A DNA stretch of 64,000 nt from a virus (IMGVR_UViG_3300028172_000069); one strand, 5' to 3'. Shown: positions 11,749 to 63,713, counted from the stretch's first letter. Translations and numbers: made by a program. Notes: a model not told the origin generated them from the letters alone.

Positions 11749-11850
11749 TGTACTTCCTGTGGGTGCCTTTAACACCCGTGCGTCGCATCTGCGAGGTGAT
11801 CGCCGTAAGGAAGGCACCGTTCCAGACAGCTTTAGATCATGTTGCGTCAG

Positions 11851-43965: not shown

Positions 43966-44211
43966 TTAACCCTCGCAGTCGCTGATTGGCGTCGAGACCC
44001 GGCAGGTCGGGCAGTAGTACACCTGACCAGCAGGGATCATCGCTGTGCCCATGGCTTTACGGCACTTCGGGCAGTTGCCTTCGCTGGTGTTATCGACAGC
44101 CGCGACAGCAATCTCGGCATTCCCATTGGCGACAGCCGTGTGTTGCGCTGGCGCTTGTACTTCGGCGTGCGGGTTGTACACTTCACGGCCGGTGGTCATT
44201 TTTACTTTCAT
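43966..44211 (-). CDS. small Zn-ribbon protein
   Basis: CPKC...YYCPTC; AGGA RBS. Confidence 0.7.
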   Translation of the reverse strand: MKVKMTTGREVYNPHAEVQAPAQHTAVANGNAEIAVAAVDNTSEGNCPKCRKAMGTAMIPAGQVYYCPTCRVSTPISDCEG

Positions 44212-55329: not shown

Positions 55330-55887
55330 TCAGTCGTCCTGATCACCGACGCTGAAATTTTTCAGCATGATCTGGACAGGGTTACGCGCCAGGCGCTTGT
55401 TGACGAATTCGATCCGTGCCTTCATGGCGTCGTCTACAGGCACTTCGTCGCTCAGGGTAATGTGCGGGCTGTACGGGATGAACGTGTGCTCGGCACCCAG
55501 TTGCTGGCAGCGTGCGTTGAGCGAGATAACGGACTCACTCACCAGCTTCAGGACGATGTACGTCTTGCCGTTGTGGCCAACCCACGACTCGACAGCGTTG
55601 ACCAGCGCCGAGAACTGGTTGTCCTTATAGGCCTGCACAACGTCCAGCACTTCTGGCAGCGGCGCAGTAGCAGCCACTTTGGAGTAGACGACGGTGCAAT
55701 GCAGCGCATGTTCGTCTGGGCTCAGCTCCAGTTCGTCTGCCAGTTTCAGGATGGCGTCCACGTACTCTGGTACCACATCAACGGCAGAGTACAGCCCGTT
55801 GGTGCCGGTGTAGGGTACGAAGATCAGCTTGTTGGCAGCCTCTGCCACATTGTCATCGTGGGCTTTCATGCTCATGGTGATTTTCAT
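55330..55887 (-). CDS. acb1: anti-CBASS 2H phosphoesterase (T4 57B/Acb1 homolog)
   Basis: GLYSA...LHCTVVYS...W.....IVL.L.SE...LGAEHTF.PYSPHITLS; two HxT motifs, colinear with T4 Acb1 as recalled. Confidence 0.85.
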   Translation of the reverse strand: MKITMSMKAHDDNVAEAANKLIFVPYTGTNGLYSAVDVVPEYVDAILKLADELELSPDEHALHCTVVYSKVAATAPLPEVLDVVQAYKDNQFSALVNAVESWVGHNGKTYIVLKLVSESVISLNARCQQLGAEHTFIPYSPHITLSDEVPVDDAMKARIEFVNKRLARNPVQIMLKNFSVGDQDD

Positions 55888-56716: not shown

Positions 56717-57457
56717 TCAGAGTTTCGACAAGTCCCAGATCACGTCGGACTGCGCAGCTACATACGCAGGGTCGAGAACTACGGACGTTTCAAAGCCCAC
56801 CAGGCCTTCGCACATGCGATAAGCCAGACGCCCATCAGGCAGCTGGTAGGTCGGACGACGTGGACGGGTGTGTACACATGGTGCACCGATACCCTTACCG
56901 ACACGTGCGCCACAGACTGGGCAGGTGTAGGACGAGTAGTACATGCCCATGGAGTAGGTGTTGATTTCACCACTCAGGAGCTTGTTCACCAGGTACGAGT
57001 CCTTGGTGCGGTCGAAGCCCATGAGTTTCACCAGCTTCGCAAACTTCTTGTTGCGTGGCAGTGGGCGCAGGTACGTGTCGAAGATCACGCCCTTGGCTTT
57101 GGTGATATCCTTGTTGTCGTGCTCGACGTGAGTAGGCTTGCCCACCCAGGTACGATACGCCATCTGGCCGAACTCAGGGTTGAACGCGGTCAGCTCCTTG
57201 AACGACGCACTGTCACCGTTGGTGTTTGGCACCGAGGTAACGATTGAGGGCAGCGCCACGATGATGTAGTCGCGGATATCCTCACTGATGCGATAGTGCG
57301 GTGCTGCCTGTTTCAGCCAGATGTTGGCGTCGAGAACGCGAGCGTCACCGCCAGCTTGTTGCGCGTCCAGCTCAAGGCCTTGCTTGGTCTGAGCAACACG
57401 GTGCATTTCCGTAGGCGCCAAACCCAGCGAGAAGCTGGTACTTACCATGTGTGTCAT
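56717..57457 (-). CDS. putative prohead protease (HK97/assemblin-like fold)
   Basis: NTNGD...AYRTW.GKP..VEH...KG.I.D; YSMG...CPVCG...C.H; FETSVV.DPAY. Confidence 0.65.
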   Translation of the reverse strand: MTHMVSTSFSLGLAPTEMHRVAQTKQGLELDAQQAGGDARVLDANIWLKQAAPHYRISEDIRDYIIVALPSIVTSVPNTNGDSASFKELTAFNPEFGQMAYRTWVGKPTHVEHDNKDITKAKGVIFDTYLRPLPRNKKFAKLVKLMGFDRTKDSYLVNKLLSGEINTYSMGMYYSSYTCPVCGARVGKGIGAPCVHTRPRRPTYQLPDGRLAYRMCEGLVGFETSVVLDPAYVAAQSDVIWDLSKL

Positions 57458-57801
57458 CGGTCGCCCCTTTGGACTACGTGCTTAACCCACGACCGCGCTT
57501 CTTTCATGGTCATGGGTTGTGGGTTAATGAGAAACGGCTGTCCGCCTGCGAGTGTGACGTGAGGGCGCAGTCTCTCACCTTCATCGTCCTCGTCCACATG
57601 CGGGAAGTCGAACGGATCAAACTCACCGCCGTGCACCTTAGCCGTCCAGATGCGCAGCGAGTGACTATGATCGGTTGACGGCTCTTCCCGAGTGCTGATC
57701 GTTGCGATCTGCTTGTCACCCAGGAGAACGTGCCAGGTCTTGCGTAGCGCAATCGGCTTACGCATTTCCGCTTTATCGCAGCGGTAACGGATTCGCTCCA
57801 T
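57454..57801 (-). CDS. hypothetical protein
   Basis: 115-aa ORF, GGAGG RBS. Confidence 0.7.
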   Translation of the reverse strand: MERIRYRCDKAEMRKPIALRKTWHVLLGDKQIATISTREEPSTDHSHSLRIWTAKVHGGEFDPFDFPHVDEDDEGERLRPHVTLAGGQPFLINPQPMTMKEARSWVKHVVQRGDR

Positions 57802-57854
57802 ATAGCCTCCGTTATACGAGGGCAGTTGCGAGGATCAGAGTGATTTGCATGGAG

Positions 57855-59309
57855 TCACCAGTTGAGGAAAGATACGTGGTAGAGACCGTGGTCTTCGTTC
57901 ATTCCAACCGCAACAATCGTGCGATTAGGACCCGATGTGTAGAAGAGATAGGTCTCTTCACCTGGGTCGGTTACGTGGTCTCGCTCACGCAAGATACCTT
58001 GGGAACTCAATGCCTTCTCGAAGGTAGTTGCGAGTGTCTTCAGGTCCACGCTGCTGTGTCCGTAGAAGCTCTTGCCGGGAATACCTTTCGGACGTTCACC
58101 GACAATTGGCAGTGCTGCGTTGAACACTGTGCCGTAAACGTCCACGTGAGAAGATGCGATGGCACTGAACATCTCCTTCGATTGGGCGTGCAGGTCGTCC
58201 ATATCCATGTTGCGTAGGTAGCTCTGGGTTTGCGTGATGATTTCGTTGACTGTCTGGTAGTTCTGCTCTTCAGGAGTCATGTTACCATCAGCCGCGGTCG
58301 ATGCGATGCCTTTGAAGTCTTCCCAGGTATCGAGCAGGCCGCGTGCAACGATCATCCCAAGTGGGCCAGCGCCGAGTGCAAGCATCGTGACACCAGCACC
58401 TAAGATGGCAGCTTTGACAACGAAGCCCAGCACGGCTTTACCATCGCGCTGTTTCTTCTTGTCCTTGTGACCCTTGCCGCCTTTCTTATCCTTCTTGCCC
58501 TTCTTCTTTTTCTTCTTGGACTTCTTGTCTTCCTCCTCGTCCTCTTCTTCCTCATCAGCGTCGTCGCTAAGTTCAGGGTCGTTGGCCTTGTCACCTTCGG
58601 TGATGGGCTTGCCATCAGCGTCGAACTCTGGCTGGCCGTCAGAGTCTACTGCTTGGCGATCAGGGTCAGTCTCCTTATCGCCTTCGCTGCGGTTGTCGTC
58701 GTCGTGCGTGGATGCGGCGTCACCTTGCATCAGATCGCGTACAGCACTCAGGCCACGATCGAACAGGTGTGGCTTGTCTTTCGCCTTGGCATCGACCACG
58801 TCGTGAATCTCGTCGCGGTTCTCGTCGATGTTGTTGGCACCGCGCTTCAAGTGCTCTGGCTTGATGTTCTCCAGAGCCTTCACGGACTCGCGATTGATAA
58901 CGCCAGCGCCGTCATCGGTGAGAATCTTGCGCTGCTTATCGACCTCTGCCATGTTCTCCTTGGAGCGCTTGGTGCGATCCTTGCGAGACTCTTTGGTGCT
59001 GATCTTGGTATCCTGCACACGACCCTTGCCGCCTTTGAAGCGAGGCTTGTGACGGCTCTTTGGGTAGCGTTCATCGTACTTGGCTTTCGCCTTATCGCTG
59101 AGGCCGTCGTACTCAGTCCGCGTCAGGCGACGCTGCTTGACTGGCTCGGTGTGCCCCTTCTTTACCGTCTTGCCCTTGAGCAGGAACCGGTGCTTGCTCT
59201 TGGGATACTTCTCCAGATACTTCTTCTGGCCCGACGTCCCCAGTCTCAGGAAGTCGTCCTTGTTCAGGCGCTTCTGCGGCGCTGCTAGCGATAGGCTGAC
59301 GAGGAGCAT
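57855..59309 (-). CDS. putative internal head/ejected protein
   Basis: Two Y.(K/R)YP.S.H basic modules, an acidic-then-polylysine tract, then a long hydrophobic Gly/Ala segment. Confidence 0.6.
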   Translation of the reverse strand: MLLVSLSLAAPQKRLNKDDFLRLGTSGQKKYLEKYPKSKHRFLLKGKTVKKGHTEPVKQRRLTRTEYDGLSDKAKAKYDERYPKSRHKPRFKGGKGRVQDTKISTKESRKDRTKRSKENMAEVDKQRKILTDDGAGVINRESVKALENIKPEHLKRGANNIDENRDEIHDVVDAKAKDKPHLFDRGLSAVRDLMQGDAASTHDDDNRSEGDKETDPDRQAVDSDGQPEFDADGKPITEGDKANDPELSDDADEEEEDEEEDKKSKKKKKKGKKDKKGGKGHKDKKKQRDGKAVLGFVVKAAILGAGVTMLALGAGPLGMIVARGLLDTWEDFKGIASTAADGNMTPEEQNYQTVNEIITQTQSYLRNMDMDDLHAQSKEMFSAIASSHVDVYGTVFNAALPIVGERPKGIPGKSFYGHSSVDLKTLATTFEKALSSQGILRERDHVTDPGEETYLFYTSGPNRTIVAVGMNEDHGLYHVSFLNW

Positions 59310-60390
59310 TTTGGAATCCCATGATTGTGGCAATATCGTTCGCCAGGCGGCCGTCGATCTTGGGCGCCAGCTTCATTGCGTGTTGAATGTTTTCTTTGGC
59401 CCGGGTCATCTGACCAAGAGAGAAGTAGCAGACGGCGAGCAGGTGATACGGCCAGTGCTGGTAGTATTCATCCCGATGGATCATGCTCACCTGAGGCTGA
59501 GTCTCGACGCGCAGGGCATTACGGAGCATGCCAATGCAAGGCTCGTATTGGCCACACTGGAAGTACAAGAAGGCGAGCGCACAGAAAGGCTCACGGGCGC
59601 TTGGGAACTCGGCGATTGCGCGATAATGCCACGCTTCGCATTCGTTGAGCGCTTCTTCCAGTTGACCATCCATGGCGAAGTAGCACTGGGCGATGTACAG
59701 CGCAGACTCAGAGCGGAACGGACCATGGGTTTCGATTTCGATGTGCTTCTTGAGCCACATGATCGCGTCGAAGTATTGACCCTGGTACATGAACTCACGG
59801 CCGAGATACTGGACCATGCGTGCGTCGTCTGGATTCTCCTCGACACCCTTTTGCAGGAGTTCAAGGTAGGACGAACGCGGCTTGTCGTTGTCTGGCTCAT
59901 GGAACACGTCGATCGGAAGTTCCTTGTACGTGTAGTTCTCGTAGCAAGCGAGGAGCTCATGCACTGGATACTTCCAGTAGAAACCGTGGCGCGTGTGGAT
60001 TGCTTCGCGCAGATAGGAGACGATGGGCTTGCGCGCTTCATCGTATTGGAAGACCAGACGCACCGCGTACATGTGGTGCGAACGGTTGGAGATCAGTTCC
60101 TTGATCTTGGTAATGCTTCCCGGCTCCATGACCTCGTCAAGGTCAATGAACATGCAGTAATCCACATCCATGCTGACGAGGTTCATGGCGGAGTTACGCG
60201 CCGTGTCGAATCGGAAGGGTTCAAATGCCATGGAGCTGACTTTGACGCCCAGCGACTTGAGGGCCTGCTGGGTACCATCTGTCGAGCCCGTGTCCAGCAC
60301 AACGATTTCGTCAGCGTCCTTGACGCCTTCAAACCAGCGAGAGACGTGCTTGGCTTCGTTCTTTGCAATTGCGTATACGGCGAGTTTCAT
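59113..60390 (-). CDS. glycosyltransferase family 2 with TPR repeats
   Basis: AIAKNE...DEIVVLDTGSTDGT...F..ARN...FIDLDE (DxD)...VHE; TPR-like helices in the C-half. Confidence 0.9.
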   Translation of the reverse strand: MKLAVYAIAKNEAKHVSRWFEGVKDADEIVVLDTGSTDGTQQALKSLGVKVSSMAFEPFRFDTARNSAMNLVSMDVDYCMFIDLDEVMEPGSITKIKELISNRSHHMYAVRLVFQYDEARKPIVSYLREAIHTRHGFYWKYPVHELLACYENYTYKELPIDVFHEPDNDKPRSSYLELLQKGVEENPDDARMVQYLGREFMYQGQYFDAIMWLKKHIEIETHGPFRSESALYIAQCYFAMDGQLEEALNECEAWHYRAIAEFPSAREPFCALAFLYFQCGQYEPCIGMLRNALRVETQPQVSMIHRDEYYQHWPYHLLAVCYFSLGQMTRAKENIQHAMKLAPKIDGRLANDIATIMGFQNAPRQPIASSAAEAPEQGRLPETGDVGPEEVSGEVSQEQAPVPAQGQDGKEGAHRASQAASPDAD

Positions 60391-60449
60391 TCGGGTAACT
60401 CCGGGTTAGCTTCTCATGGAGATAGCAGTTGTCGATTAACGAGGCGCTT

Positions 60450-61115
60450 TCAGCTTGTTTTGCGGACAGGCTTGCTGTTACGCAAGCTCGTCTGAGCACT
60501 CTTGAGTGAGGTCTCCAATTTGGCTAGCGACGCTTCCAGTTCTCTGCGTGCGCGCGGTGTCTTAGCGTCGCTGATTTGGCGTTTTGTGATTGCGATTTGG
60601 TTTGCTAGTTTGCGAATGTTGCGGCGCAAGAATGGGCGACCTGCACCACCTTGCGTTGCGCGGGATGCTTTCTCGCTGCGCTGTACCGTGGCGCTATCGC
60701 CTGCACGTGGTGTCTTCTGGTTGCGCGGAAGGTGACGCTTGGAGTGATCGGCTTTTGCTTGCTGGGCTTTGGTAAGCTGCTCAGTCGCACGCTCCAGTTT
60801 GGCGTTCAAAGGAGTAGACAATTCACCCTTAAGCGCTTTGATGACTTCGCGTACGGATTTGATCTTGCCTCGCACGGTTTCGATGCGGGCTTTTGTTGCC
60901 TGCGGTGTGACAGCACGACGAGTGCCATTACCTTTCAGCTTGGCCAACGTTTCTTTCAACGTGTCCAGCTTTTTGTTCTGGCTTGCGATCTTGGTCGCAA
61001 TGGAAACGTCTTTCTTGAGTTCCTTGACGCGCTCTTGGTGCTCTTTCAGGTTCGCCGGCTTTGCAGCAGCAACGGACTCGAAGCTATCGTCCGCGCGAAT
61101 GATGATCTTGCCCAT
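60450..61115 (-). CDS. basic coiled-coil protein with shared leader (putative internal head protein)
   Basis: MGKIIIRADDSFESVAA leader; K/R-rich; paralog of 61143-62129. Confidence 0.75.
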   Translation of the reverse strand: MGKIIIRADDSFESVAAAKPANLKEHQERVKELKKDVSIATKIASQNKKLDTLKETLAKLKGNGTRRAVTPQATKARIETVRGKIKSVREVIKALKGELSTPLNAKLERATEQLTKAQQAKADHSKRHLPRNQKTPRAGDSATVQRSEKASRATQGGAGRPFLRRNIRKLANQIAITKRQISDAKTPRARRELEASLAKLETSLKSAQTSLRNSKPVRKTS

Positions 61116-61142
61116 GATGGGTTCCTTATGGACAGGTAGTGA

Positions 61143-62129
61143 TTAACGCGAATCGCGCAGACCGAGCTTCACATCGCGACCGTATTCGGCAGCTTTGCGT
61201 TTGTCGGAATCCACTTGCTTGCGGTGTACGCGCGTGGCGGCCTTCTTGCTGCGCTCGTTGGCAGCCTCGTCTTTTGCACGCTGCGCAGCCGATGGCTTCA
61301 TTTTGGTCAGTGCAATGCGAGTGGAGTTGTAGGACTTCTCCAGAGCTTTGAGCTCCTTGGCCGCCATGTTTTTCGACTCGGTAGTGCGCGCATTGGCAAC
61401 CTTGCGCTTGGCCGCTTCTACAGCCCGACCGATCTGGTTGAAGCGCGTCATCAGCTCTTTGCGCTCACGATCATAGTCGGCCGACGGTGCAGCAGGCGTT
61501 GCCTTGGTGGCTTTCTTCTTCTCGAACAGGTGACCGCTGTAGACCAGGTCAGGTGCCTTGCCAGCTTCGAGTTTGCGAACGTCACGCTTGGCGCTGCGAA
61601 TGCGATGGATCAAGTCATCTTCATCGCCTTTGCCCGCTTCGTTTGCGCGCTCCAGAGACGTGATATGCTTCTGCAAGGTGCGGATGGAAGCGTCTTTGTT
61701 CTTGAGGACGTCTTTGCGCATGACGTCACGGCCAGCGGCGTGTTCCTTGGACGCAGTACGGACAGTGGTACTGTGCTCTTTCTGCGCTTCTTTGGCATGC
61801 GCCAGCTTCTGCGCTACTTCGTCCGGATCAGTGTGGCGCTGGTTCGACAGCTTGCCTTTGAGAGCGCGCACTTGCTCTTTGGCATCAGCCACGGCTTGCT
61901 TCGCCTTGTCGCGCTTGGCGATGTTACCGGCAACCTTCGGAGCGTGCTTGAGTTTCGCCAGCGTATCGCGTGCCTTTTCTTCGGCGGTGCGTTGCTTCTT
62001 GATATCCTTGGCGATCTTCAAGTCTTTGGTAAGATTGGTGACGTGCTGCTTGTGCTCGTGGGTGGAGTTTGGTGCGCGTGCTGCAACAGCCTCGAAGGAG
62101 TCGTCCGCGCGAATGATGATCTTGCCCAT
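61143..62129 (-). CDS. basic coiled-coil protein with shared leader (putative internal head protein)
   Basis: MGKIIIRADDSFEAVAA leader; K/A-rich. Confidence 0.75.
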   Translation of the reverse strand: MGKIIIRADDSFEAVAARAPNSTHEHKQHVTNLTKDLKIAKDIKKQRTAEEKARDTLAKLKHAPKVAGNIAKRDKAKQAVADAKEQVRALKGKLSNQRHTDPDEVAQKLAHAKEAQKEHSTTVRTASKEHAAGRDVMRKDVLKNKDASIRTLQKHITSLERANEAGKGDEDDLIHRIRSAKRDVRKLEAGKAPDLVYSGHLFEKKKATKATPAAPSADYDRERKELMTRFNQIGRAVEAAKRKVANARTTESKNMAAKELKALEKSYNSTRIALTKMKPSAAQRAKDEAANERSKKAATRVHRKQVDSDKRKAAEYGRDVKLGLRDSR

Positions 62130-62185
62130 GCTGTGCTATTCCTTGGTCTTGTGGAAAGCGGCCCGTTGCGAGCCGCTATCTGGCC

Positions 62186-63283
62186 TTACTTCTGCTTGAT
62201 CTTGCCTTCGAGGCGAATGATCTTGGCATTCAGGCTTTGCAGTTGAATGCTCAGCTTACCGTACAGCGGACCCTGACCTTTGGCTGCGGTGACACGCTTG
62301 CGCAATTCTTTGGCCTCAGCCTTGGCTTTCTCCAACATGCGTTCCAGCTTGGCGCGCGCTTCTGGCGTGGTGCCCATGCTCTTGGTCTTCGGAGTAGGAA
62401 CAGCAACCGGCTTGACAGGCTTCACTTGCTTGACGCGACGACCGTTGACTTCGGCTGGCAGCTTCGGCTTACCTTCGGCTGTAGCACCCTTACGCAGTTC
62501 ACGCAGCGCACCGCGCAGCTTCGCCAGGTCGGCTTGCATGTGCGGCTTTTTGGTAGGAGTGGCGTTCGCCAGCTCTTTCTTGAGCGCGTAGATTTTGGTC
62601 AGGGTGTTCTTGATCGCAGTGGCGTTCTTGTCGTCTTTGTGAGTCAGCACCTTCGCTGGCTTCTTGGTAGACGCGGTCGGCTTGACTACTGGCTTTGGCG
62701 CAGGCTTGAGTGCCTGAGCTTCGTGCTTGTCGAGGGTCACCTTGACGGTGTGCTTCAACTTGCCAGAGGCGGTCTTGGCTTGCTGCGCGAACTTGGCAGC
62801 AGGATCTTTCGGAGTGCGTGGAATCTTCGCACCAGCACCACCGATGCCGGGACCACCGATGTTCACTTTCGGCTGCTTGGGCGCCAAGGCTTCTTTGGCC
62901 TTGCGTACCTTGGCACGCTCTTTGGCATCAGCTTCCTGTTGAGTCAGGCGGGCGATACGGTCTTCGTGCTTGGCGATCTGCCCTTCAAGCTTGGTGATCT
63001 GGCGTTGCATCCCGAGCACTGTGTCCTTTGTGGACAGTGCGTGCTTCTGGCGCTCGGCGCTGATCTTGCTGCGAATGGATTCTTTCTGACTTGGCGGTAC
63101 GTGCTGCAGGCGCAGCTTGAGCGCAGCAATGCGCTTCAACGGCTCGACTTTCTTTTTGCGTTCTTTGATACCAGTCTGAGTGGACTTGATGAGAGTCTTG
63201 TACGCCTTGATCTTGGACGCGTAGGTATCTTGCATCGCGATGGCCTCGAAGGAGCCGTCGGCGCGAATGGTGAGAAGTGCCAT
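62186..63283 (-). CDS. basic histone-H1-like protein with shared leader
   Basis: MALLTIRADGSFEAIAM leader after GGAG RBS; KPAPKPVVKP tracts. Confidence 0.75.
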   Translation of the reverse strand: MALLTIRADGSFEAIAMQDTYASKIKAYKTLIKSTQTGIKERKKKVEPLKRIAALKLRLQHVPPSQKESIRSKISAERQKHALSTKDTVLGMQRQITKLEGQIAKHEDRIARLTQQEADAKERAKVRKAKEALAPKQPKVNIGGPGIGGAGAKIPRTPKDPAAKFAQQAKTASGKLKHTVKVTLDKHEAQALKPAPKPVVKPTASTKKPAKVLTHKDDKNATAIKNTLTKIYALKKELANATPTKKPHMQADLAKLRGALRELRKGATAEGKPKLPAEVNGRRVKQVKPVKPVAVPTPKTKSMGTTPEARAKLERMLEKAKAEAKELRKRVTAAKGQGPLYGKLSIQLQSLNAKIIRLEGKIKQK

Positions 63284-63293
63284 GAATAACTCC

Positions 63294-63713
63294 TTAGATT
63301 TTCTTAAGGCGGGAGAGGCCTTTGCGGATACCATCGACGTACTGCTGAGCGTTACGGACTTCGCGAGCTGCGTCGTCGTGTGCTGCTTCATCGGCACTGT
63401 CAGGCATTTTGGCGAGGCGGGCGCGAGCAACCTTGAGCTTCTCCAGGCCGATGGCCAGATCACGCTTCAAGTGCTGGACGGCTTTCGAGTCAGTGGTGAC
63501 CAAAGCTTTCTTGTCGTGCGTGTTGTCGTAACCGTTCAGCAGCTCCATGAGCCGCGGGTAACCACGCACACCCTTTGGACGAAGACCCTCCGAGTGGAGA
63601 ATCTCCGTCGCATGTTTGTAGTACGGGTGCTTCTGAATCGTCTTCCAGTCCGGATCGTCGTCGGACGCAACGGCCTTGAAGCTATCGTCAGCACCAATGA
63701 GAATCTTGGCCAT
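63294..63713 (-). CDS. protein with shared leader (putative internal head protein)
   Basis: MAKILIGADDSFKAVAS leader; TAATG coupling. Confidence 0.7.
   Translation of the reverse strand: MAKILIGADDSFKAVASDDDPDWKTIQKHPYYKHATEILHSEGLRPKGVRGYPRLMELLNGYDNTHDKKALVTTDSKAVQHLKRDLAIGLEKLKVARARLAKMPDSADEAAHDDAAREVRNAQQYVDGIRKGLSRLKKI

Follow-up and report, generated by a model that had tools for sequence, protein, structure and literature searches.

A 17-residue N-terminal leader on basic proteins of a PaBG-related jumbo phage as a candidate capsid-targeting propeptide

Four consecutive minus-strand genes in a viral DNA stretch of 64,000 nucleotides (IMGVR_UViG_3300028172_000069; the window) encode proteins of 221, 328, 365 and 139 aa (P1-P4; pI 9.4-11.2) with a common N-terminal tag. 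The source phage is related to Pseudomonas phage PaBG and belongs to the clade of PaBG ("Lupandier") jumbo phages. We regard it as probable that the 17-residue tag is a bipartite propeptide, similar to the capsid-targeting sequence (CTS) of T4, on basic proteins that would be loaded into the head. The end of the leader matches a motif found at likely trimming sites of head proteins, and P1-P4 are therefore probably head-loaded and trimmed. The first-pass annotation had proposed a new capsid-targeting and maturation code. The fold of the neighbouring protease, the enrichment of the motif in head proteins and a site in the capsid protein that accounts for a mass loss of about 20% agree with such a code; its principle, however, is that of the known T4 CTS (PMC9026906), and the novelty lies in the clade of phages and in the sequences of the leader and of its putative cut motif.

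P1 (60450..61115; 221 aa, pI 11.2) and P2 (61143..62129; 328 aa, pI 10.2) have class A bodies and are true paralogs with 38% identity over 125 aa. The bodies of P3 (62186..63283; 365 aa, pI 10.6; class B) and P4 (63294..63713; 139 aa, pI 9.4; class C) are unrelated to those of P1 and P2. Searches with tblastn identified P3 as the ortholog of PaBG gp220 (PaBG_00220; 33% identity, E 1e-19) and P4 as that of PaBG gp219 (35.5% identity, E 1e-13). Codons 1-17, all on the minus strand, lie at 61065..61115 in P1 (ending in E-S-V-A-A), 62079..62129 in P2 (E-A-V-A-A), 63233..63283 in P3 (E-A-I-A-M) and 63663..63713 in P4 (F-K-A-V-A-S, with Lys in place of Glu); the four N-termini are present at the gene starts as the first-pass annotation had quoted them. 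The longest P3 reading frame begins at GTG 63463, and we set its start at ATG 63283 because AAGGAG lies just 5' of this ATG and gene starts in relatives agree with it. The start ATG of P4 overlaps the stop codon of the DNA ligase gene. The leader position held by Lys in P4 is variable among class C orthologs; if the cut needs Glu, the P4 leader would be targeted but untrimmed. P1-P4 showed no significant match to a PHROG or Pfam family and no homology to T4 IPI, IPII or IPIII, and an Atlas search with the leader proteins returned generic long-helix matches only. Composition is the sole basis for the label "histone-like" that had been given to these proteins. The cargo bodies differ in length already among strains with about 97% DNA identity.

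The leaders follow the consensus M-x-x-I-x-I-x-x-D-(G/D)-(S/T)-F-E-(A/S)-(V/I/L)-A-A. Across unrelated body classes, 49% of positions are identical within residues 1-17 and 6-7% within residues 18-51. The likeness of P3 to P2 is confined to the first 16 residues, a stretch that alone gives a BLASTP E of 9e-4, and the likeness of the leaders is far above chance. The leaders vary at synonymous sites, including Ser AGC versus TCC, which shows that the peptide, and not the DNA, is conserved under selection. No further leader was detected when all six frames of the 137.7-kb contig were scanned in full. The leader is common to three unrelated body classes from at least eight phage genomes. A search of 1.84 billion representatives with a leader profile revealed 42 matches, 36 of them beginning at residue 1-2. 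The 36 clusters headed by the leader contain proteins of 136-426 aa with a median pI of 10.4, nearly all of them basic. In the 35 clusters with the D-G turn, which share less than 50% mutual identity, the residues I, I and D hardly vary, every cluster (35/35) has Ser or Thr at position 11, and Glu is present in 29 and replaced in 6. The residue three before this Glu is Ser/Thr in the leader; it is not conserved in other copies of the five-residue motif.

The leader end, E-(A/S)-x-A-(A/S/G), is about tenfold enriched in the head proteins of two complete relatives, PaBG and a second phage (G006). Six head-linked proteins of PaBG (gp79, the major capsid protein, gp82, gp83, the portal and the leader protein gp220) carry 12 copies of E-[AS]-x-A-[ASG], compared with 1.28 +/- 1.12 expected from composition-matched shuffles (0 of 5000 reach 12), for a motif pattern defined after the fact and a protein set picked partly with the motif already in view. 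The head set of the G006 genome, selected by homology only, answers most of this selection concern: it contains 11 copies with 1.01 expected (0/5000 shuffles). The rest of both proteomes is close to expectation (PaBG: 15 versus 14.5; G006: 19 versus 14.7). Six of the PaBG copies lie in the acidic, scaffold-like gp82, whose homologs keep the motif in variable linkers; the scaffold-like protein also has a candidate site for a cut after Ala near its C-terminus. The gp82 copy L-E-E-A-V-A-A-Y falls within a conserved helix, where its role may be structural. The virion protein gp83 has the motif at residue 9 and the portal at residues 42 and 527. In portals the motif is kept within an otherwise variable N-terminus, and homology between the PaBG and G003 portals begins exactly at the motif. 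The position of the motif in the capsid protein is kept in five PaBG-clade loci and in L063 (L053, L054, L056, L057, L059, L063); the distant capsid proteins of L061 and L062 lack it. A cut at this position in the PaBG capsid protein would remove a computed 20.0-20.8% of its mass, and the motif thus fits the published capsid maturation, for which a loss of "about 20%" has been reported (PMC7412058).

The small-x-small pair (A/S-x-A/S) is kept even where the preceding Glu is lost, which makes a cut after Ala a live option, and in that case the conserved motif positions would fall on the non-prime side. The tetrad [S/A/G]-[V/I/L/T]-A-[A/S] pointed out earlier is a real part of the five-residue motif and survives the loss of Glu in the same way. 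It is also common by itself, as had been cautioned: the window holds 33 copies, a mild excess over the 18.8 +/- 4.5 obtained by shuffling. Tetrads had further been listed near N-termini or domain borders of several genes; copies in the genes at 57855 and 10384 exist, and the gene at 43966 has its tetrad at residue 35. The copies in these three genes lack a preceding Glu. As cut sites, their tetrads and that of the NUDIX gene receive no backing from the fuller motif, and among likely real proteins of the contig the Glu-containing form recurs just once more.

The gene for the head maturation (prohead) protease (56717..57457, minus strand; 246 aa) lies near the leader genes and has 78.7% DNA identity with its PaBG counterpart. 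Its product matches phrog_18299 ("head maturation protease") with an E of 6e-104. An AlphaFold model built with 53 homologs (pLDDT 88) could be superposed on T4 gp21 (5jbl) over 149 of 165 residues (VIA-align Z 11.7; Foldseek probability 1.0), and much more weakly on the varicella-zoster virus (VZV) protease (Z 6.0). Three residues in the order His...Ser...His (H113, S169, H196) and three cysteines (C179/C182/C194) are invariant in the 53 homologs. There was no Pfam match at E <= 0.1, including Peptidase_S77, and sequence and profile searches of the PDB were empty. As modelled, the protein is a divergent branch of the gp21/assemblin fold that is recognisable only via structure and PHROGs, and both the family match and the fold bear out the earlier assignment as a prohead protease.

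Three further minus-strand genes separate the protease from P1. A conserved 115-aa protein (57454..57801; phrog_31356, E 2e-41), whose stop codon overlaps the protease start, has an equivalent immediately 5' of the protease gene in the majority of the related loci read. It is followed by a conserved, charged 484-aa protein (57855..59309) with no significant Pfam or PHROG match, whose start we placed at ATG 59309 because the N-terminus MLLVSLSLAA is conserved across the family. Two YPKS(K/R)H repeats and acidic runs that give way to poly-Lys are accompanied by a hydrophobic segment and a C-terminal domain; to judge by gene position alone, the protein may belong to the prohead core or serve as an anchor. 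The third gene (59113..60390), directly downstream of the leader genes, encodes a GT2 glycosyltransferase with TPR repeats (Pfam Glycos_transf_2, 2e-11, plus TPR families; phrog_13126, 3e-131). No gene lies between the leader genes and this GT2-TPR gene in the window and in two relatives; in the rest it is one or two small genes further away, and it is also found in relatives without leader genes. More distant relatives keep the protease and lack leader genes at this locus.

We infer from these data that the motif is a cut site, that the leader is cut and targets its proteins, and that these proteins are present in virions. Residues 1-12 (M-x-x-I-x-I-x-x-D-G-S/T-F), which probably form a beta-hairpin around the D-G turn, would dock the protein either to the protease or to the prohead core during assembly, and residues 13-17, E-(A/S)-(V/L/I/T)-(A/S)-A, would be cut by the phage's own gp21-fold protease. 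The cargo would consist of fast-evolving basic, helical, K/R/A-rich proteins that are retained in the head with the DNA for charge neutralisation or DNA protection and may be ejected with it. For the scissile bond, the junction of residues 16 and 17, just behind the small-x-small pair, has about even chances; a cut after Glu13 is markedly less favoured, and what probability remains falls to a leader without any cut. Characterised gp21-type proteases follow a hydrophobic-x-Glu or small-x-Glu rule (PMC10052503, PMC9026906), and since the motif departs from both, a cut here would be without precedent in the family. More tentatively, the protease of the PaBG clade may have left the Glu rule, to which all characterised prohead proteases of myophages adhere, and cut E-A-x-A-(A/S/G) before its last residue, in the manner of assemblin or signal peptidase, with the leader as a self-contained, portable tag for delivery into the head; we consider this possible but rather doubtful. 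An Acb1-type nuclease adjoining the protease has a similar architecture, M-x-I-x-hydrophobic followed by E-A-(T)-A-A. If the small-x-small rule and the portable tag were both true, this anti-CBASS enzyme would already be inside the capsid before infection and would enter the cell together with the DNA.

In PaBG (KF147891), gp219 and gp220 likewise lie beside the protease gene in unchanged order, with one full leader gene (gp220) instead of four. Its gp219-gp221, gp83 and gp191 are all annotated as hypothetical, and the PaBG paper mentions proteolytic processing, but neither the leader nor the cut motif (PMC7412058). PaBG virions contain the basic, K/A-rich proteins gp191 (K 26%, A 25%) and gp83, both with motif-bearing N-terminal regions. 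The hexapeptide D-[GDN]-[ST]-x-E-[AS] is found within PaBG only in gp191, which carries V-x-V-D-N-S-P-E-A, and in the leader protein. The PaBG virion table, the sole virion proteome for any relative and a shallow set of 14 Coomassie bands analysed by MALDI, lists gp83 and gp191 and does not contain gp219-221. Trimming would leave gp220 with about 32 kDa, a size at which it would co-migrate with the capsid protein band.

The propeptide reading has its closest parallel in T4, where propeptides of 10-19 residues on basic, poorly conserved internal proteins target with their N-terminal part and are processed at their end (PMC9026906). Common to both are a short N-terminal propeptide (17 residues here) on otherwise unrelated basic proteins from side-by-side genes, a gp21-fold protease and a locus that varies between close strains; the same division into a targeting part and a cut end is proposed here. 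In contrast to T4, the leader has no sequence similarity to the CTS or the internal proteins, the motif E-(A/S)-x-(A/S)-A does not obey the T4 cut rule (L/I)-x-E, the cargo is larger (139-365 aa) and helical, and the phages belong to the PaBG ("Lupandier") clade and are not T4-like. Packaging and cleavage have been shown for T4 and are inferred here. In phiKZ-like giant phages (phiKZ gp175, SPN3US gp245), many head proteins, including capsid protein, portal and ejected proteins, lose N-terminal propeptides, some of only 20-24 residues (PMC10052503). These phages are likewise giant myophages, and their cut motif has Ala as the third residue ahead of the scissile bond and Ser immediately behind it. 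The SPN3US protease, however, cuts after Glu in A-x-E, whereas here Glu precedes A-x-A and the pair outlasts it; a shared leader on paralogous cargo is not described in the papers on phiKZ-like phages that were consulted. Herpesvirus assemblins (S21) cut their maturation sites after Ala in (V/L/I)-x-Ala-Ser. They share a fold superfamily with the phage protease, and both enzymes would cleave behind an Ala that is followed by a small residue, but T4 gp21 is by far the better structural match and the motifs are not identical.

A leader that serves as a structural or interaction hairpin, for oligomerisation or for binding of DNA or a partner, is an unlikely alternative. P1-P4 would then be intracellular proteins, which for example coat the genome or remodel the nucleoid, and the likeness of residues 13-17 to the head motif would be incidental. 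The pattern I-x-I-x-x-D-G-S/T-F also occurs in hairpin repeats inside the giant unrelated proteins P0142 (9 stretches) and P0155 (6), which points to a generic shape; homologs are missing from the 14-band PaBG virion list, and the leader cluster follows the DNA ligase gene, to which it is translationally coupled. Such a hairpin, however, explains neither the N-terminal placement in 36 of 42 matches, nor the constant five-residue motif behind it that is otherwise confined to head proteins, nor the abrupt end of conservation at residue 17. Less likely still, the TPR domain of the GT2-TPR protein would bind the leader as a recognition tag and the glycosyltransferase would modify Ser/Thr 11, comparable to a RiPP maturase. 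TPR domains bind peptides, the gene adjoins or nearly adjoins the leader genes and residue 11 is constant in kind; yet the linkage is one-way, as the GT2-TPR gene stays beside the protease module in relatives without leader genes and must therefore have another substrate, and the E-A-x-A-A half with its match to head-protein sites is left unexplained. Glycosylation and a propeptide are mutually compatible. A functionless relic of common descent or recent gene conversion, suggested by the tandem genes and the P1/P2 paralogy, is close to refuted by the counts, since the leader is all that P3 and P4 have in common with P1 and P2, identity falls from 49% to 6% across the residue-17 boundary, the leaders differ synonymously up to a switch of Ser codon family, and they are kept over 35 clusters of low mutual identity.

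The PaBG/"Lupandier" group is large, little studied and common in water and soil metagenomes. If the capsid-targeting propeptide holds true, a defined leader could load foreign proteins into jumbo phage heads, a purpose for which the T4 CTS has already been used. These phages would gain a candidate code, consisting of a 12-residue address and a five-residue cut motif, that would predict by sequence alone the head cargo and the trimming points of capsid, portal and scaffold. Proteases of the gp21 fold would not be bound to cutting after Glu, which bears on the divergence of phage and herpesvirus maturation proteases. The leader also draws attention to basic proteins that form a hypervariable set and would travel with the DNA; the comparable T4 locus carries anti-restriction functions.

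Four consecutive minus-strand genes, P1 (60450-61115), P2 (61143-62129), P3 (62186-63283) and P4 (63294-63713), encode proteins of 221, 328, 365 and 139 aa that begin with a shared leader of 17 residues, M-x-x-I-x-I-x-x-D-(G/D)-(S/T)-F-E-(A/S)-(V/I/L)-A-A. The sequence bore out all four genes and N-termini as the first-pass annotation had given them, and the leader is real and significant. P3 starts with the ATG at 63283, and the AAGGAG preceding it overlaps the stop codon of P4. Each of the four proteins is K/R/A-rich and basic, with a pI of 9.4-11.2. P1 is a paralog of P2 (38% over 125 aa); P3 and P4 have the leader alone in common with these two. Synonymous differences separate the four leaders, among them AGC versus TCC for one and the same serine, which shows that constraint acts on the peptide and not on DNA or RNA. 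A search for the leader throughout the 137.7-kb contig, as had been proposed, found it nowhere else. Family searches with P1-P4 in PHROGs, Pfam and the ESM Atlas returned no family, coiled-coil noise only.

The phage, a jumbo phage, is a relative of Pseudomonas phage PaBG (Baikalvirus). The gene of its head maturation protease (56717-57457, minus strand; 246 aa) is 78.7% identical in DNA to the PaBG counterpart, and the surrounding gene order is that of PaBG, gene for gene: on the minus strand, an NAD-dependent DNA ligase is followed by small basic genes, a GT2-TPR glycosyltransferase (59113-60390), a large charged protein, a 113-115-aa protein and the protease. At strain level, two other public contigs extend this phage (G001, 96-98% identity; G007, 97.8%). 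Tail and metabolic genes make up most of the window's own contig; the head genes, missing from the window, are present on G007. Scanning 56-64 kb for sigma-70 promoters and terminators gave no minus-strand sites and was uninformative.

Further features of this genome were noted. At 59113-59309 the low-complexity tail of the GT2-TPR gene, ~65 codons at its end, runs in another frame over the start of a 484-aa protein (57855-59309, minus strand), whose N-terminus is conserved; this overlap measures ~47-53 nt in relatives and ~190 nt in PaBG if the long ORF is used. In the 484-aa protein the motif K-Y-x-E-(K/R)-Y-P-K-S-(K/R)-H occurs twice. The protein also has one acidic and one poly-Lys run and a segment that is hydrophobic and membrane-like, and its YPxSKH-type motif was found again in basic proteins of distant relatives (L063). 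Another common N-terminus, M-L-(S/T)-L-I-P, is carried by several large tail-fibre/adhesin-like proteins (minus-strand window ORFs ending at 11817, 12669, 17223 and 20680, and PaBG gp270 and gp271) and is probably a common attachment module.

Loci of relatives were fetched from viral contigs and public assemblies with the protease as anchor. Phages with a protease identity of 74% or more have between one and four full-leader genes at the same place; in more distant relatives (protease 47-70% identical) leader genes are absent at the locus. PaBG has one full-leader gene, gp220. A strict regular expression for the leader matched nothing else in the PaBG genome, so the full leader is specific to the leader gene cluster, and head proteins share only its last five residues. 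Three classes of body, unrelated to one another, were distinguished, A (P1/P2), B (P3/PaBG gp220) and C (P4/PaBG gp219), with a between-class identity of 49% over residues 1-17 versus 6-7% over residues 18-51. They also change fast: the G001 counterparts of P1 and P2 have 284 and 241 aa versus 221 and 328, with flanking DNA that is ~97% identical. Window 60430-61504 (P1 and the end of P2) did not align with G001:C1:91331-92309 at an E cut-off of 1e-50, and both sides of this stretch are 96-98% identical between the strains; it is a local hotspot of divergence or replacement between strains.

A tblastn search of 50,697 phage records with P3 and P4 detected PaBG only, and a word-based homolog search with P3 found only 4 close relatives; it took an exhaustive profile search to find more. 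The profile, built from residues 1-60, matched 42 proteins among 1.84 billion representatives, 36 of them beginning at residue 1 or 2 (136-426 aa; median pI 10.4). Among the 35 clusters with the D-G turn, the first half of the leader is conserved as I (33), I (35), D (35), G (30), S/T (35) and F (31), and its end as E (29), S/A (33), V/L (29), A/S (32) and A (29); beyond the leader end no conservation was seen across these clusters. Profile positions 3-13 also match repeats in two giant unrelated proteins, P0142 (2826 aa; 9 stretches) and P0155 (1312 aa; 6), so I-x-I-x-x-D-G-S-F has a common beta-hairpin shape. Similar N-terminal strands occur on other small or basic proteins adjoining the protease or head genes of relatives. 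Those at L062:724-1248, L041:14735-15118, L056:2865-3215 and G006:C1:257747-257941 show starts of the kinds M-K-I-S-L-D-L-N-G-Y-E-S, M-Q-I-S/T-F-P..A-T-A-A and M-K-I-R-I-T-M-K-A-E-A, which suggests further leader variants.

The main new result is that the motif at the leader end is tied, by its distribution in sequence, to head maturation. The E-A-V-A-A that ends the gp220 leader is also found in four other real PaBG proteins: the major capsid protein (residue 75), the virion protein gp83 (residue 9), the acidic scaffold-like gp82, and gp197. For the PaBG motif counts, genes were called with a codon model, and 14 annotated genes served to check the set; it replaced two crude ORF sets, which in this GC-rich genome had picked antisense ORFs over the capsid gene. 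E-[AS]-x-A-[ASG] occurs 12 times in six head-linked PaBG proteins, a set picked partly after the motif was seen, versus 1.28 +/- 1.12 in composition-matched shuffles (0/5000 reach 12); the rest of the proteome holds 15 copies versus 14.5 expected. Because of this selection we repeated the test on a relative's complete 277.6-kb genome (G006), with the head set defined by BLAST alone as homologs of gp79, the capsid protein, gp82 and the portal. This set contains 11 copies versus 1.01 expected (0/5000 shuffles), and the rest of the genome 19 versus 14.7, three of the 19 being its leaders. Of the four motif copies that the window contig has in likely real proteins, three belong to leaders.

The motif keeps its position inside otherwise variable sequence of the capsid protein, the gp82 homologs and the portal. 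In the capsid protein the position is kept in five PaBG-clade loci and in L063 (L053, L054, L056, L057, L059, L063), and in gp82 homologs at three linker positions. Both PaBG and the window phage's strain have G-F-E-A-T-A in the low-complexity portal N-terminus, and homology between the PaBG portal and that of the distant G003 starts exactly at the motif. By calculation, a cut at the motif would take 20.0-20.8% off the mass of the PaBG capsid protein; the PaBG paper (PMC7412058) gives 'about 20%' as the loss during maturation. A search for gp83 homologs in distant genomes found none.

Neither Pfam nor searches of the PDB by sequence and by profile gave a match to the protease, which PHROGs classes as a head maturation protease. 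Its AlphaFold model (pLDDT 88 from a 53-homolog alignment, 32 as single sequence) resembles T4 gp21 (Z 11.7, rmsd 3.2 A, 149/165 residues), followed by herpesvirus proteases (Z 6.0 and 4.9). H113, S169 and H196 are invariant in the family, as are C179, C182 and C194, and C216 is nearly so; the cysteines suggest a zinc-binding insert that is absent from T4 gp21 (165 residues in the crystal). The last 16 residues, modelled with low confidence, contain a conserved D-P-A-Y-V-x-A-x-S-D, a possible self-cleavage site. A complex prediction from alignments of the protease and of P2 residues 1-60, without controls, gave 'no answer' (score 0.01), which weighs neither for nor against binding.

As to the bond that is cut, the T4 enzyme cleaves after Glu in (L/I)-x-E, often before Ala (PMC9026906), and that of SPN3US after Glu in A-x-E, before Ser (PMC10052503). 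A T4/phiKZ-style cut after Glu in S-F-E was downgraded as sole option, with three observations against it. These closest characterised enzymes rely on residues before Glu, whereas the two or three residues at this place are unconserved among the motif copies. The capsid proteins of the distant G003 and G004 keep A-T-A-A or A-T-A-S, and the G003 portal A-T-A-A, without the preceding Glu. In six leader clusters Glu is replaced by M, K, V, Q or T, and small-x-small-Ala is kept. The candidate cut after the small-x-small pair, proposed in the first-pass annotation, would place the conserved positions before the cut and would resemble the Ala|Ser rule of assemblins.

Basic proteins with comparable N-termini are packaged in this clade. 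The 14-band PaBG virion table lists gp83 (pI 10.3) and gp191, an abundant virion protein of 332 aa (26% Lys, 25% Ala) present in several bands. V-x-V-D-N-S-P-E-A lies ~20 residues from the start of gp191 and of its homolog in the window phage's strain, and the hexapeptide D-[GDN]-[ST]-x-E-[AS] was found, in six frames of PaBG, in gp191 and the leader protein only. Packaging of basic proteins that bear such an N-terminal signal thus has a precedent in the clade, but gp219-221, homologous to the four window genes, are absent from the table. The gp191 homolog, outside the window (G001:C1:52508-53515), has ~335 aa and is histone-H1-like with AKKP-type repeats.

We infer that leader residues 1-12 target the protein to the prohead, because of the analogy with T4 and because a cut site on its own could do without them. 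The outline of M-x-I-x-hydrophobic, short linker and motif recurs on gp83 homologs, small proteins beside head genes and an Acb1-type nuclease downstream of the protease, which hints at a wider address code. The Acb1-type 2H phosphoesterase (55330-55887, minus strand) has an M-x-I-x-hydrophobic start in most relatives read (L005, L014-L018, L020, L040, L042, L063), not in L061, then a variable-length linker and (E)-A-(T)-A-A-N-K directly before the conserved PYTG core. It might also be head cargo; alternatively, its start may simply correspond to strand one of the fold. The leader proteins may instead have a cytoplasmic role. The leader may also be recognised by the adjacent GT2-TPR enzyme, but this gene is also found without leader genes and so cannot depend on them.

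The earlier interpretation, a capsid-targeting peptide with a cleavage site that loads histone-like proteins into the head, was right in kind, the support for it being indirect. In the literature we found no leader or cut motif described for PaBG-type phages, and the predicted cut motif of the leader and head proteins is new. As far as sequences tell, the leader system follows the T4 capsid-targeting principle in another phage clade, and both its leader and its predicted cut motif differ from those of T4.
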